A stretch of DNA of 64,000 nucleotides from a virus (taxonomy: Duplodnaviria > Heunggongvirae > Uroviricota > Caudoviricetes). The stretch lies in IMG/VR virus record IMGVR_UViG_3300045988_004821. One strand, written 5' to 3'. The notes below the pieces were generated by a model. It had not been told where the DNA came from. It was given only the letters and a program-made list of their open reading frames with translations, and ran no database searches. This document shows, piece after piece, positions 12,933 to 16,495 of this stretch (positions are counted from its first letter, which is position 1; each line of letters starts with the position of its first letter). A program made the translations under genes and the position numbers.

Positions 12933-13013
12933 TTTTAAAAGATGTTGACAGGCTCTACAAAGTTGCTCTAAAGTCTGTCACATCAAACAACAAATGAGAG
13001 AAGAGAGTAAAAT

Positions 13014-14429
13014 ATGAGCGAATTATTTAAACATGCGCACCTTCATGCAGGTCGAACTGAAAATGGTGCTGTAAACCATACTTCATCAATGTCTGCTCTT
13101 GTGGACTTTTACAAAGCTGCTGGTTCCAGCCGTAGCAATGTAGAAATCTTACCAGACCTGTTCTACAAAGCTTTGCGTGAGGATGTTGATGTTGCAGTTC
13201 GTATTTTACTGCATATGCGAGATGTACGAGAAGGTATGGGTGAGCGTAAAGCCTTCAGAACTGTTTTGCTTCAAGCGATTGAAGACAAAGTTTTAGAACC
13301 TGTACAGGTTCTTCGCATTATGGATAAGATTGCAGAACTTGGTCGTTTTGATGACTTCAAAATCTTCGTAGGTACTCGTTTCGAGACAGATGCCTTCAAA
13401 CATTTAGAAGCAGCATTACTAGACCCTGCAACAGCAGGTTTGGCGGCTAAGTGGTTACCACGAGTCAAACCACGTCATAAGCAGTTTGTAAAACGTTTCT
13501 GCAAGTTTGCCAACTTAAGTGAGAAAGAGTACCGCACACTGTTGTCTGCACTATCTGATACAGTTGAGCAAAAAATCTCTGCTAATGAGTTTGGTAAGAT
13601 TGACTACAGTAAGATTCCTTCACTTGCTGCTGCACGTTACCAAAAACTGTTTAACCGTAAAGATGGAGAACGCTACAAAGCTTACATCGAGTCATTATCA
13701 AAGGGTGAGGCTAAGATTAATGCTGGTGCTGTTTACCCATACGATGTGATTAAATCTGTTAAGTATGGTAATGCAGATGTTGCTAATGAGCAGTGGAAAG
13801 CACTACCAAACTGGATGGCAGAGGGTGAGAACATTTTGTGTATGACTGATGTCTCAAGCTCAATGTCTTGGGTGAATTTCGGTTCAATCACTGCTCTTGA
13901 TATTGGTGTATCTCTTGCACTGTATGTAGCAGAACGCAATACTGGTTGTTTTAAAAATGAGTCAATGGTTTATTCAACAAACCCTCACTTCATCGAACTG
14001 AGTGGTGATTTACGAAACCGTCATCGTCAGGTAATGCGTTATACTGAATATGGTTCAACTAACTTACAAGCAGCTTTTGACCGTATTCTTGAGACAGGTA
14101 AAAGAAACAACTTGACTCAGAAAGATATGCCAAGTAAGCTTATCATCTTCTCCGATATGGAGTTCAATCAGGTTGATGGAGCTAACGGTCGTACAAACTT
14201 TGAAGCAATTCAGAGTAAGTACAAAAAAGCTGGATATGAGATGCCACAACTGGTATTCTGGTACTTAGCAAACCGTAATGGTACTTGCGAAGTATCTGTT
14301 AAGGATAACGGTGTAGCAATGGTATCAGGGTTCTCTCCAGCCACTTTAAAAGCTCTGCTTGGTGGTGAGAAGTTTGACCCAATCAGCGTAATGCTCAAAG
14401 CAGTAATGATTGACCGTTATATCTGGTAA
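13014..14429 (+). CDS. VWA-domain protein with N-terminal helical domain; Ro60 (TROVE-VWA) / DUF2828-like architecture
   Basis: Intact MIDAS motif DVSSSMS in the C-terminal half; N-terminal TENGA motif; 471 aa; sits directly upstream of the tRNA array. Confidence 0.5.
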   Translation: MSELFKHAHLHAGRTENGAVNHTSSMSALVDFYKAAGSSRSNVEILPDLFYKALREDVDVAVRILLHMRDVREGMGERKAFRTVLLQAIEDKVLEPVQVLRIMDKIAELGRFDDFKIFVGTRFETDAFKHLEAALLDPATAGLAAKWLPRVKPRHKQFVKRFCKFANLSEKEYRTLLSALSDTVEQKISANEFGKIDYSKIPSLAAARYQKLFNRKDGERYKAYIESLSKGEAKINAGAVYPYDVIKSVKYGNADVANEQWKALPNWMAEGENILCMTDVSSSMSWVNFGSITALDIGVSLALYVAERNTGCFKNESMVYSTNPHFIELSGDLRNRHRQVMRYTEYGSTNLQAAFDRILETGKRNNLTQKDMPSKLIIFSDMEFNQVDGANGRTNFEAIQSKYKKAGYEMPQLVFWYLANRNGTCEVSVKDNGVAMVSGFSPATLKALLGGEKFDPISVMLKAVMIDRYIW

Positions 14430-15941: not shown

Positions 15942-15970
15942 TTGACATTGAGATGTGACTACTTTATAGT
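15942..15970 (+). promoter_or_regulatory. sigma70-type promoter (TTGACA-17-TATAGT) inside tRNA array
   Basis: Consensus -35, 17-bp spacer, TATAGT -10, A/T-rich upstream. Confidence 0.6.
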
Positions 15971-16174
15971 AACCTTAGTTTTCGTTGCGTAGCGTCTATT
16001 TTGCAAATTTAAAATAAATGCAAACGACAATGTTTTTCTGGCAGTAGCTTGATAGGCTAAACACCAGTGAGGTCTTCCAATCCCTCATCAAAGAATTTGG
16101 CGTACTCGCCCACGGTATGATTAATAAGGTGGGCATCTTTAAGGGCTTTCTAAGAGAGTCTTTAAAGATAATTA

Positions 16175-16256
16175 CGGGGCGTATCTCAGCGGTCTTCTAA
16201 ACCGCCGTTAACCGAGTAAGTGGAGTATGCGGGTTCGAGTCCTGCCGCCTCGACCA
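16175..16256 (+). tRNA. atypical tRNA-like element (acceptor/T-arm minihelix; hairpin with TCT in a 7-nt loop where the D-arm should be; possibly degenerate tRNA-Arg)
   Basis: Acceptor CGGGGCG/CGCCTCG, T-arm GCGGG-TTCGAGT-CCTGC, CCA encoded, but no canonical D-arm and no anticodon arm at the expected position. Confidence 0.35.
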
Positions 16257-16399: not shown

Positions 16400-16482
16400 A
16401 TGGGACGATGTTAAGACTCTAAGGCATGAGCAACGGCTTCCAACACCGTTTCAAAGGGGTTCAACTCCTCCGTCCCATGCCA
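16400..16482 (+). tRNA. tRNA-Trp (anticodon CCA) with extended D region
   Basis: Perfect acceptor ATGGGAC/GTCCCAT, anticodon arm ACGGC-TTCCAAC-ACCGT, T-loop TTCAACT, CCA encoded; D region about 7 nt longer than canonical. Confidence 0.5.
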
Positions 16483-16495
16483 AAGTCTTATTAGG

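Follow-up and report, generated by a model that had tools for sequence, protein, structure and literature searches.

A predicted non-cloverleaf tRNA-Arg(UCU) with a re-threaded D domain in a Felix O1-like phage

The window analysed here, a stretch of 64,000 nucleotides, is DNA of a Felix O1-like phage and carries an 82-nt tRNA-like element at 16175-16256 (+). On comparative sequence grounds, this element is probably a functional elongator tRNA-Arg(UCU) that does not adopt the cloverleaf: its D domain is re-threaded, and it is predicted to be charged by the host ArgRS and to decode AGA. According to recent literature, every bacterial tRNA known so far is a canonical cloverleaf, and arm size is the sole structural variable of cytosolic tRNAs (PMC11551756). 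This view would not hold if the reading is true, for there would then be a natural and abundant tRNA, specific for arginine, whose strands are connected differently. Related elements make up a family that is widespread in phages of Proteobacteria and Actinobacteria. The chances are about even that this family is the first natural non-cloverleaf elongator tRNA of bacterial cytosolic translation, i.e., a topological isomer that is specific for arginine across all arginine anticodon families and was maybe selected to escape tRNA-directed host defence while staying a substrate of ArgRS, EF-Tu and the ribosome. A search of the full-text literature outside subscription journals, which took in a dedicated 2020 review, yielded no account of a tRNA of this kind.

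Architecture of the element

All the concrete features named by the initial annotation are present in place, and its 7-bp acceptor stem, good T arm and encoded CCA stand. The 5′ strand of the acceptor stem, CGGGGCG (positions 1-7, 16175-16181), pairs with the 3′ strand CGCCTCG (16246-16252) with one G-U pair, and all seven pairs show compensatory changes across homologues. The discriminator A73 (16253) and the encoded CCA (16254-16256) follow on the same strand. The T arm, GCGGG-TTCGAGT-CCTGC (16229-16245), is canonical in the Rfam alignment, with G53-C61, T54 T55 C56 and A58; three to four of its five pairs covary, the G59-C67 pair (element numbering) is invariant, and the loop consensus TTCRA holds. 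The resulting 7/5 acceptor/T arrangement is thus backed by covariation. The initial annotation was mistaken, on the other hand, in reporting no anticodon arm. The hairpin GCGGT-CTTCTAA-ACCGC (16189-16205) does exist, but it is no substitute for a missing arm, since Rfam aligns it as a fully canonical anticodon arm with a 5-bp stem and a 7-nt loop (16194-16200) that reads C32 U33 UCU A37 A38 and so includes U33 and a purine at position 37. Four of its five stem pairs covary, the loop is invariant, and the anticodon TCT (16196-16198) reads AGA.

What differs from a cloverleaf is the route of the strand around this arm. No D-arm hairpin lies between position 9 and the anticodon arm; the spacing between acceptor and anticodon arms is 7 nt, and the Rfam alignment shrinks 15 model positions to 4 nt where the D-arm would stand. 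The connector begins with U8 A9 U10 (16182-16184), of which the alignment columns T8 and A9 are invariant in every family member; both were left unconstrained in the scans, so this invariance was not imposed by the search, and the two bases may stand in for U8 and A21 of the canonical U8-A14-A21 layer. Next come C11 U12 C13 (16185-16187), the 5′ strand of a putative D-stem surrogate, and A14 (16188), the single, position-26-like base that separates this strand from the anticodon stem, which is invariant in the window's subfamily and mostly unpaired with its possible partner.

The initial annotation regarded the 23 nt downstream of the hairpin as unstructured and the D domain as missing. Both statements have to be revised: one side of a covarying helix (its 3′ strand) lies in this region, as does a motif that resembles a D-loop and is invariant, so that a D domain exists with different strand connectivity and only the D hairpin itself is absent. 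An 8-nt bulge, CGTTAACC (16206-16213), separates the anticodon stem from G40 A41 G42 (16214-16216), which covary with 16185-16187; in the bulge, CGTTAA is invariant in the window's subfamily, and other subfamilies have 4-8 nt of different sequence. The segment 16214-16217 is closed by U43, invariant in all 90 sequences of the family alignment. It leads into AAGTGGA (positions 44-50, 16218-16224), which matches A14 A15 N16 Y17 G18 G19 A20 of canonical phage tRNA-Arg, and a GTAT linker (16225-16228) then joins the T stem. The last U of this linker (16228; alignment column 47, T) is invariant in 90/90 sequences, the A before it is found in at least 90%, and this U is a candidate for the U48 partner of A15 in a Levitt pair.

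Gene finders respond weakly to this arrangement. The initial annotation left room for a conventional cloverleaf that a program might find; none was found, and ARAGORN run on the window makes no call at 16175-16256. The Rfam tRNA model RF00005 does call the element, at 31.7 bits against a gathering score of 29, over model positions 1-71 and with an E-value of 6.7e-5 locally or 1.1e-3 over 6 kb. When the element is folded as a single sequence, its stability equals that of shuffles (z = 0.04), and thermodynamics alone is uninformative. The silence of ARAGORN, the marginal Rfam score and a fold no better than shuffles all count against a functional tRNA. In Felix O1 and others, an HNH gene appeared to split the match, but an HNH insertion or intron in the element was rejected: the element is intact there and the HNH ORF begins about 20 nt downstream.

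Covariation and the D-stem surrogate

The case that the element is real is made by comparative data and not by single-sequence thermodynamics. In 25 distinct homologues, 99.4% of the stem cells are paired and 14 of the 20 pairs show compensatory changes; none of 500 shuffles reached the observed stem score, and sliding the partners lowers pairing to 31-51%. In the wider class obtained with looser scans, linker bases 11-13 pair with the three bases that precede U-AAUUGGA. All 90 sequences form Watson-Crick pairs at 11/-2 and 12/-3, with four pair types at each, and 70 of the 90 form pair 13/-4, in a helix that the parser that collected the sequences never demanded. The flanking pairs 10/-1 and 14/-5 are paired in 12% and 11% of cases and therefore generally lie outside the helix. 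Within the window's own length class, i.e., 16 natural ungapped 82-nt sequences, the surrogate is 100% paired. The CUC/GAG helix is invariant in the window's own subfamily, and its covariation support thus comes from sister subfamilies. De novo RNAalifold on the same 16 natural 82-nt sequences did not recover the surrogate, which counts against the proposed architecture; the helix rests on pair counts, not on energy models. Altogether, the covariation demonstrates a helix that encloses the anticodon arm, and the D-loop-like AAUUGGA that continues from it into the T arm would supply the equivalents of G18 G19 A20.

A different use of the same nucleotides has to be weighed here. The element could be D-armless in the way of mitochondrial tRNAs, or resemble class II tRNAs; the 23 nt would then form a small variable-arm hairpin (38-40/47-49) or stay unstructured, and nothing would correspond to a D-surrogate or D-loop. 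The minimum free energy fold of the window sequence does draw the 38-40/47-49 hairpin, whose three pairs can always form in the window's subfamily, and RNAalifold proposes another, 2-bp hairpin (32-33/39-40). Yet the variation in 38-40/47-49 is one-sided (C-G/U-G or G-U/G-C), neither hairpin shows a double compensatory change, and both are missing from other subfamilies, in which the bulge has 4 nt and a different sequence, e.g., AGAAAGCU-AAUUGGA. Both hairpins were rejected on these grounds. Furthermore, 38-40/47-49 would lock G48 G49, part of the invariant Arg-type AAnnGGA motif, while the competing 11-13/40-42 helix is backed by all four Watson-Crick pair types. A D-armless or class II-like tRNA is accordingly improbable.

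Arginine identity

The scaffold follows arginine. When the anticodon was left free in searches with the window-type scaffold, only UCU and one CCU were recovered, and the looser scaffold returned UCU 103 times, ACG 14, CCU 7, UCG 2 and GCG 1. A topology-only scan of 2.1 Mb, which covered phage DNA fetched for holding Arg-type elements only, gave arginine anticodons (UCU, CCU, ACG, UCG, GCG) in 94 of 98 matches. Three of the four non-Arg matches are misparsed canonical tRNAs. The sole exception to the rule is a single copy of the Arg scaffold with the anticodon GAU (L181), an observation that counts against the arginine reading; apart from this variant, the topology-only scan contained no re-wired tRNA for another amino acid. 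The initial annotation had offered a tRNA mimic as its alternative, and a pure mimic fits poorly with a scaffold that tracks arginine identity over five anticodons.

The anticodon and discriminator bases expected by a bacterial ArgRS are also present, together with a candidate for A20. A20 is the main determinant for the E. coli enzyme, and the bacterial set comprises A20, C35, U36 or G36 and A or G at position 73 (PMC9976931). C35 and U36 or G36 are found in all copies except the GAU variant, UCU being the anticodon of the window. The discriminator is G in 52, A in 35 and U in 3 of 90 family members (G/A in 87/90; A in the window), and 46/90 encode CCA. Positions A44 A45 G48 G49 A50 are invariant although the search left them free, and the invariant A directly after the invariant GG completes an AAnnGGA motif identical to that of canonical phage tRNA-Arg D-loops; the D-loop of the canonical tRNA-Arg of phage dune, for example, is AAUUGGAUA. 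In these loci, AA..GGA is found in 33% of the canonical tRNA-Arg, against 3.9% of the other canonical tRNAs. A50 may be the spatial equivalent of A20, and AAGTGGA may both make the elbow contact with the T loop and offer the A20 identity base to ArgRS. The C35, U36/G36, N73 and GGA of the family match the bacterial arginine determinants, with the A20 equivalent as a candidate.

Locus, sister phages and codon demand

Comparison of the homologous locus in related phages, suggested by the initial annotation, proved informative: the sister phages dune and Mordin carry a canonical 76-77-nt tRNA-Arg(UCU) at the exact locus of the 82-nt form, and the flanks are identical up to the gene boundaries. 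The cluster of dune lacks a re-wired copy, and the window lacks a canonical tRNA-Arg(UCU). In PBECO4, the anticodon arm of the re-wired copy is identical to that of dune's canonical tRNA-Arg(UCU).

AGA is the most used arginine codon in 44 long ORFs of the phage, accounting for 39.9% of arginine codons (AGG, 10.2%). It is rare in enterobacterial hosts. Besides the element, ARAGORN detects no AGA reader encoded in the window. The suggestion of a highly derived tRNA-Arg(TCT) is therefore supported by the canonical gene at the same locus, the Arg-only anticodons, the use of AGA and the lack of another AGA reader. The accompanying remark that this was the only arginine isoacceptor otherwise missing is incorrect, since Arg(ACG) alone is present and UCU is not the sole absentee. 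The authors of the Felix O1 paper had expected an Arg[AGA] tRNA and did not find one (PMC3185647), and the element would explain this tRNA noted as "missing" in 2010.

Approximately 205 nt upstream of the element, a consensus scan alone identifies a sigma-70-like site, TTGACA-17-TATAGT (11/12 matches; 15942-15970, +), a candidate promoter for the nearby part of the tRNA cluster. The annotation of two related records, AYO145A and ASO1A, places a "promoter" between the tRNA-Ile and tRNA-Ser genes.

More generally, another tRNA lies in the locus of 161 of 185 re-wired copies (median distance, 140 nt), while a canonical tRNA-Arg with the same anticodon is present in the fetched locus of only 3/185. 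In these three loci, re-wired and canonical tRNA-Arg(UCU) lie side by side, which indicates that the two forms are not strictly redundant; such coexistence counts against the proposed reading of the element.

The same RNA with the same fold could have an anti-defence purpose, either as a tRNA-Arg that escapes a tRNA-Arg-directed nuclease of the host or a competitor through its re-threaded D/variable region, or as a non-decoding decoy that absorbs such a nuclease. Of these, escape is compatible with a functional tRNA-Arg(UCU), and a pure decoy is not. All tRNA-Arg isoacceptors are substrates of colicin D, which would suit an Arg-wide scaffold, but colicin D cuts the anticodon loop, and this loop is canonical here (CUUCUAA). 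The replacement of canonical tRNA-Arg genes in many unrelated phage lineages suggests an advantage beyond codon supply, and keeping both forms side by side in three loci points the same way. A role against tRNA-cleaving defences has also been proposed for phage tRNAs and demonstrated for some of them; colicin D is listed among the tRNases of E. coli (PMC10264068, PMC11464382). Nevertheless, the re-wired RNA is not known to be linked to any nuclease, recognition rule or resistance phenotype. As for a pure decoy, it would need neither the full arginine identity set, the canonical acceptor/T minihelix and CCA, nor the status of sole AGA reader in clusters of 20-25 tRNAs. An anti-defence purpose is thus rather unlikely as the main account of the element. 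If it did apply, the family could become a new case in which anti-tRNA defences of the host have shaped the tRNAs of phages.

Distribution and annotation

GenBank holds approximately 265 full-length copies in phages of unrelated groups, and many IMG/VR contigs carry the same element. None of 5,426 E. coli genomes gave a match, and the window-type motif was found on one MAG contig among 185,579 species genomes. No more than 4 of 185 copies overlap an ARAGORN call. In GenBank, the labels given to copies include "tRNA-OTHER Nd_NNN", tRNA-Leu(taa) in phage 121Q and tRNA-Val(aac) in Streptomyces phage Yaboi.

Taken at face value, the two latter labels would mean a tRNA-Leu(UAA) or tRNA-Val(AAC) in which the CUUCUAA hairpin is an aberrant D-arm and CGUUAAC is the anticodon loop, as annotated in 121Q and Yaboi. 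This is almost certainly wrong. CGUUAAC is not flanked by a 5-bp stem and is absent or different in most subfamilies; the hairpin loop is always Y32-U33-NNN-R37 with an arginine anticodon, and the canonical tRNA-Arg found at the same locus has a matching anticodon arm. The Leu(taa) and Val(aac) readings were rejected for want of a stem around CGUUAAC and because of the Arg-type hairpin loop; some GenBank records mistake the bulge for an anticodon loop. Arginine entries in phage tRNA inventories would then be systematically wrong.

That gene finders skip the element or label it "tRNA-OTHER Nd_NNN", and that "pseudo" tRNAs were described for these clusters in the papers on Felix O1 and UAB_Phi87, could also suggest that the element is the remnant of a tRNA gene or has a tRNA-like but non-translational role, for instance to mark processing sites in a polycistronic tRNA transcript. 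Decay cannot generate four helices with compensatory changes, an anticodon loop that is invariant and limited to arginine anticodons, and a spread across unrelated phage families, and the covariation already refutes the remnant version. A processing signal would have no need for an anticodon loop, an A20-like base, C35 or A/G73. Neither version is at all probable, and the known pseudo-tRNA remnant envisaged by the initial annotation does not apply, the gene being conserved, covarying and widely distributed.

Proposed fold and function

These findings lead to a model for a functional tRNA-Arg(UCU) in which the acceptor stem, T arm and anticodon arm are canonical and the D hairpin is replaced by a long-range 3-bp helix, C11-U12-C13/G40-A41-G42, that encloses and coaxially extends the anticodon arm. 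The 3′ strand of this helix leads directly into AAGUGGA, which meets the T arm where a variable loop is normally found; in effect, the module formed by the D-stem 5′ strand and the D-loop has been shifted 3′ of the anticodon arm. One can reasonably presume that the element is transcribed together with the tRNA cluster and that host enzymes reading the acceptor/T minihelix trim it at 16175 and past the encoded CCA. The mature RNA may then adopt an L-shaped fold with a normal elbow, the G18 G19-like bases contacting the T loop, with equivalents of the U8-A14 and A15-U48 pairs; the L shape, like the equation of A50 with A20, is predicted by sequence analogy. Host ArgRS would charge it through the A20-like base, C35, U36 and A73, and the charged tRNA would decode AGA and possibly AGG. 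A non-cloverleaf element is feasible in this setting because the EF-Tu, the ribosome and a synthetase of E. coli accept even a D-armless tRNA (PMC11551756).

If this model is true, the family would provide a natural test of what ArgRS, RNase P, EF-Tu, modification enzymes and the ribosome need from the tRNA core. The scaffold would also be a candidate orthogonal-looking chassis for tRNA engineering.

Comparison with known tRNA types

The closest relative is the canonical tRNA-Arg(UCU), of which E. coli argU and the T4 tRNA-Arg are further examples. The 76-nt gene of Escherichia phage dune and Citrobacter phage Mordin occupies the same slot with the same flanks and shares with the element the loop CUUCUAA, the 7/5 branch, an AAUUGGA-type D-loop sequence (G18 G19 A20), A/G73 and the encoded CCA; the presumed role, AGA reader for an AT-rich phage, is also the same. 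Unlike this gene, the element has no D hairpin, and its D-stem strands flank the anticodon arm; its D-loop is open-ended and joins the T arm without a separate variable loop, it measures 82 instead of 76 nt, and the usual gene finders overlook it or give it a wrong label.

D-armless mitochondrial tRNAs, such as mammalian mt-tRNA-Ser(AGY), similarly lack a D hairpin and have a short 5′ connector and an extended anticodon helix, yet they are truncated, are described as flexible or Y-shaped for lack of the D-loop/T-loop interaction, and depend on partners that have co-evolved with them (PMC9427863, PMC4013460, PMC7609411). Although it lacks the D hairpin, the element shows neither the loss or erosion of elbow nucleotides nor the smaller size of that type: at 82 nt, it is longer than a normal tRNA and has an invariant GG(A) and a canonical T loop. 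The phage family further differs in its U8-, A14- and A15/U48-like bases, and it must use unmodified bacterial host machinery. The synthetic "mini HisT" evolved in E. coli also has no D hairpin and is tolerated by the ribosome, EF-Tu and a synthetase, but it is artificial, with bases 11-25 deleted and a predicted Y-shape (PMC11551756), whereas the phage family is natural and its D domain is re-wired.

The allo-tRNAs, i.e., 8/4 or 9/3 tRNAs of bacteria and phages, are likewise non-standard and sequence-mined, and some lie in phage tRNA clusters; they keep a four-arm cloverleaf with a D-arm and alter the split of the 12-bp branch (PMC5389517). The element instead has the 7/5 split, not 8/4 or 9/3, and an altered D topology. 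Nor does it belong with class II tRNAs, given that it has no D hairpin and that 38-40/47-49 lacks compensatory support. Finally, the red alga Cyanidioschyzon merolae has circularly permuted tRNA genes in which the order of segments is altered and which are processed back to a normal cloverleaf. The segment order is non-cloverleaf in both cases, but the phage gene is not permuted in this sense: its acceptor strands lie at the gene ends and its CCA is 3′-terminal. Because the rearrangement is internal and no circular permutation restores a cloverleaf, the new connectivity must persist in the mature RNA.

Sequence features and detection of the element

The 82-nt element at 16175-16256 (+ strand) reads CGGGGCG-TATCTCA-GCGGT-CTTCTAA-ACCGC-CGTTAACCGAGTAAGTGGAGTAT-GCGGG-TTCGAGT-CCTGC-CGCCTCG-A-CCA, and the acceptor stem, T arm, encoded CCA and TCT-bearing hairpin described in the initial annotation are all found at their places in the sequence. 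ARAGORN, proposed there as a check, calls no conventional tRNA at this position (0 calls), versus 25 tRNAs called on the + strand between 14595 and 19516. The Rfam tRNA model matches 16175-16253 with 31.7 bits, above its gathering score of 29; in the alignment, the hairpin falls on the anticodon arm of the model, the D-arm is missing (15 model positions shrink to 4 nt) and ~20 nt are inserted ahead of the T arm. The single-sequence fold shows no excess stability over shuffles (z = 0.04). Because the element is marginal by ARAGORN, Rfam score and fold, the case hangs on cross-sequence comparison.

A near-consensus sigma-70 promoter (TTGACA-17-TATAGT, by sequence match) lies on the same strand at 15942-15970, and the region contains no substantial ORF. 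The ~200 nt that separate this strong promoter-like site from the tRNA (15975-16174, +) are conserved in the window and in the Escherichia phage dune and the Citrobacter phage Mordin. This interval has no sizeable ORF on the + strand, its Rfam matches are weak and at chance level (tmRNA, 16 bits), and it is possibly a leader or a small RNA.

Distribution among phages

The window derives from a Felix O1-like phage (Felixounavirus), with 99.3% identity to Escherichia phage humlepung across the region of the element. The same 82 nt are annotated as an undetermined tRNA in at least two relatives, REP8 ('tRNA-OTHER Nd_NNN') and VpaE1_ev035 (unnamed tRNA). In the original Felix O1 paper, the locus is missing from the tRNA table, while AGA is noted as over-represented and a matching tRNA 'might have been expected' (PMC3185647).

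BLAST retrieves full-length copies at 84-97% identity from ~265 GenBank phage records, including unrelated groups such as the Asteriusvirus jumbo phages (121Q, PBECO4), Stephanstirmvirinae (phi92, JohannJBalmer), Mydovirus (KB57) and Sugarland-like Klebsiella phages, among others. A pattern scan of IMG/VR adds 42 loci, and re-wired tRNA-Arg(UCU) is also found in a Vibrio phage, a Kuravirus and Streptomyces phage Yaboi. The Yaboi and 121Q copies are annotated as tRNA-Val(aac) and tRNA-Leu(taa), respectively, because the CGUUAAC bulge was taken for an anticodon loop. Cellular genomes hardly ever carry the motif: in 185,579 species genomes, it occurs on a single MAG contig, which also bears a tRNA cluster, and 5,426 complete E. 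coli genomes give 0 matches. Two IMG/VR contigs named GVMAG-M-... (L102, L117), from bins labelled giant-virus MAGs, also carry re-wired tRNA-Arg; either they are misbinned phage contigs or the architecture reaches viruses of eukaryotes.

Exchange with canonical tRNA-Arg(UCU)

An annotated canonical tRNA-Arg occupies this slot in further Felixounaviruses and Mooglevirus phages (dune, Mordin, UAB_Phi87 and others). In the alignment, the flanks match fully up to ...AAAGATAAT on the 5′ side and again directly after CCA, and between them lies either a 76-77-nt canonical gene or the 82-nt form. The anticodon loops of the two forms are identical, and the anticodon arm of the PBECO4 re-wired copy is that of dune's canonical gene. 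No re-wired copy is present in the entire tRNA cluster of dune, nor any canonical Arg(UCU) in the window, whose sole canonical Arg tRNA is Arg(ACG). AGA is the top Arg codon in the window's ORFs of at least 150 aa (39.9%, n = 44), followed by CGT (35.2%); AGG makes up 10.2%. Across 185 re-wired copies in 177 fetched loci, 161 have another tRNA within the locus (median distance 140 nt), only 3 sit in a locus that also has a canonical tRNA-Arg with that anticodon, and only 4 are overlapped by ARAGORN calls. The element stands in for tRNA-Arg(UCU), and its initial reading as a derived tRNA-Arg(TCT) is supported by the related phages, which carry the canonical gene in the same slot. In three viral contigs (L030, L142, L153), re-wired and canonical tRNA-Arg(UCU) adjoin, ~10-20 nt apart, which suggests that one form does not always make the other redundant.

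Covariation and the displaced D domain

Among 25 distinct sequences, the bases of the acceptor, anticodon and T stems are wholly replaced, yet pairing is kept: 99.4% of stem cells are paired and 14 of the 20 pairs show double compensatory changes. None of 500 shuffles reaches the observed covariation score, and sliding the partners by 1-3 columns leaves 31-51% paired. Unlike the stems, the two 'linkers' are nearly invariant, including GAGTAANYGGAGTAT, which the search pattern left free. The element is a conserved gene, also beyond Felixounavirus.

A looser scan (CTTCTAA, 13-17 nt, AATTGGA, 8-12 nt, GTTCRA) yields at least 120 loci and at least 91 distinct RNAs. All 91 RNAs listed share one layout, 5′ to 3′: acceptor stem, 7-nt linker (U8 A9 N10-N14), anticodon arm, 4-8-nt bulge, 3-4-nt strand, U, AAUUGGA, 3-8 nt and T arm. 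Among the matches listed, positions 11-13 of the linker covary with the trinucleotide immediately 5′ of U-AAUUGGA, although the parser did not require this helix. Pairings include CUC/GAG, CCC/GGG, CGG/CCG, CAC/GUG, CAUC/GAUG, CUUC/GAAG, CAG/CUG, CGC/GCG and ACC/GGU. Pairs 11/-2 (CG 69, UA 13, GC 7, AU 1) and 12/-3 (GC 36, UA 27, CG 14, AU 13) are both Watson-Crick in 90/90 of these matches, and 13/-4 is paired in 70/90 (CG 36, GC 27, UA 5, AU 2). Among 16 natural 82-nt sequences without gaps, the length class to which the window's element belongs, the 11-13/40-42 helix is 100% paired, with A-U, U-A or G-C at 12-41 and C-G, U-A or G-C at 13-40.

By this covariation the element keeps a D domain, with a different connectivity: the D stem is a long-range helix around the anticodon arm, whose 3′ strand runs straight into the D-loop-like AAUUGGA and then the T arm. 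The initial annotation was thus right that no D hairpin exists, but a D stem does, by covariation, and the 23 nt it regarded as unstructured hold the covarying D-stem 3′ strand and the D-loop-like motif. AAUUGGA agrees with the D-loop (AAUUGGAUA) of the canonical tRNA-Arg from this locus. Among canonical tRNAs of these loci, the D region contains AA..GGA in 33% of tRNA-Arg versus 3.9% of the others, which points to an Arg-type motif. The invariant positions are U8, A9, the two As and the GGA within the motif, and the U directly 5′ of the T stem; the T loop is canonical. The tertiary layers U8-A14(-A21), A15-U48 and G18/G19 with the T loop could still form, giving a near-normal L shape along a different backbone path.

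One IMG/VR contig with 28 tRNAs (L057), including canonical Arg(ACG) and Arg(CCG), carries two re-wired copies from different subfamilies (12999-13080 and ~13342-13423). One has the window-type scaffold with anticodon CCU; the second, divergent copy has TATGCCG in place of TATCTCA and the 3′ segment AGAAAGCT-AATTGGATAGAACAT. ARAGORN reports the UCU copy as a 98-nt tRNA-Arg whose 5′ end is misplaced.

Arginine specificity

With the anticodon left free, the window-type scaffold is found at 49 loci, all UCU (loops CUUCUAA or CUUCUAC) but one CCU, and the looser scaffold gives UCU 103, ACG 14, CCU 7, UCG 2, GCG 1, GAU 1 and a few misparses. A topology-only scan of all 2.14 Mb fetched, requiring no D-loop sequence, gave 98 distinct matches, of which 94 carry Arg anticodons, three are canonical tRNAs with a misparsed D-arm and one is a GAU variant; as this DNA was fetched for its Arg-type elements, the Arg shares apply to that set and not to re-wired tRNAs elsewhere. 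Every Arg-anticodon copy has C35 with U36 or G36, and N73 is G or A in 87/90 of the matches listed. Together with the A after GG, a candidate A20, these positions appear to reproduce the set by which bacterial arginine tRNAs are recognised: A20, C35, U/G36 and A/G73. E. coli ArgRS relies mainly on A20, which is unique among tRNA families (PMC9976931). The scaffold tracks amino-acid identity over five anticodons, as expected of a real ArgRS substrate; an anticodon-specific mimic would not do so.

The GAU (Ile) copy, on the - strand of L181 at ~1532, keeps a re-wired Arg-type scaffold (TATCCCC ... AAGGT-AATTGGA, loop CTGATAT), lacks C35 and may either be decaying or have switched identity.

Other unusual tRNA-like elements

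Flanked by the re-wired tRNA-Arg and tRNA-Ser(TGA), a second unannotated tRNA-like element lies at 16400-16483 (+). Its fold has an 8/4-like layout, with 8 bp in the acceptor stem (AUGGGACG/CGUCCCAU) and 4 bp in the T stem, and it ends in discriminator G and encoded CCA. The loop of its internal hairpin holds CCA, the anticodon of Trp, the only amino acid without a tRNA among the window's 25 called, and the hairpin stem shows a compensatory change in Mordin (AACGG/CCGTT to GTAAG/CTTAC). The element is conserved in 236 Ounavirinae records, none of which annotates it as a tRNA; its only Rfam match is a weak one to tRNA-Sec (16.9 bits). A non-canonical tRNA-Trp is a possible reading. These phages carry other unusual tRNAs as well: several ARAGORN 'tRNA-???' genes whose anticodons have 2 bases (ga, gt, tg), in Mydovirus-like clusters and two unclassified viral contigs (L009 1063-1137 and 2739-2808; L012; L043; L014 262-337; L052 1770-1845), and a second 'tRNA-OTHER' in Roth50 (L007 120-204).

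Proposed function and spread

In the most likely route, each step of which is inferred, the re-wired tRNA would be transcribed together with the tRNA cluster, and host enzymes reading the canonical acceptor/T minihelix would trim it to mature ends at 16175 and the encoded CCA. It would then be charged by host ArgRS, delivered by EF-Tu and used to decode AGA, and perhaps AGG as well. The phage is AT-rich, and its hosts rarely use AGA. Such a tRNA is feasible, since the E. coli translation apparatus accepts a tRNA entirely lacking the D-arm (PMC11551756).

As to what drove the displacement of canonical genes in many lineages, escape from a tRNA-directed nuclease is an attractive hypothesis (cf. 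PMC10264068). HNH homing-endonuclease genes lie directly 3′ of re-wired tRNA-Arg in at least three unrelated lineages: Felix O1 (L006, ~516-862), Roth50 (L007, 1598-2107) and SSBI34 (L064, 401 onward). They also lie inside the split match of other Felixounaviruses (Alf5, ECML-1, heid, mio, D4), are variably present across otherwise near-identical Felixounaviruses, and may contribute to horizontal transfer of the tRNA cassette. Felix O1 ORF45, with its annotated start at position 470 of the locus, overlaps the re-wired tRNA; this start was probably set too far upstream, and the ATG at ~516 fits better.

Comparison with known tRNA types

A 2024 paper holds that all known bacterial tRNAs are canonical (PMC11551756), and no earlier description of such a tRNA was found in full-text searches of literature outside subscription journals or in a dedicated review of non-canonical tRNAs. 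Given this, and since the element fits none of the unusual tRNA classes compared below, we rate it a new structural variant of tRNA-Arg, of which an earlier description is possible. It passes the Rfam tRNA threshold but lacks the D hairpin that defines the cloverleaf. It is not a D-armless tRNA of the mitochondrial type, because it retains the elbow nucleotides and is longer than standard. It differs from class II tRNAs in having neither a D hairpin nor a supported variable stem, from 8/4 or 9/3 allo-tRNAs in being 7/5, and from permuted genes restored by processing in that its acceptor ends lie at the gene ends.
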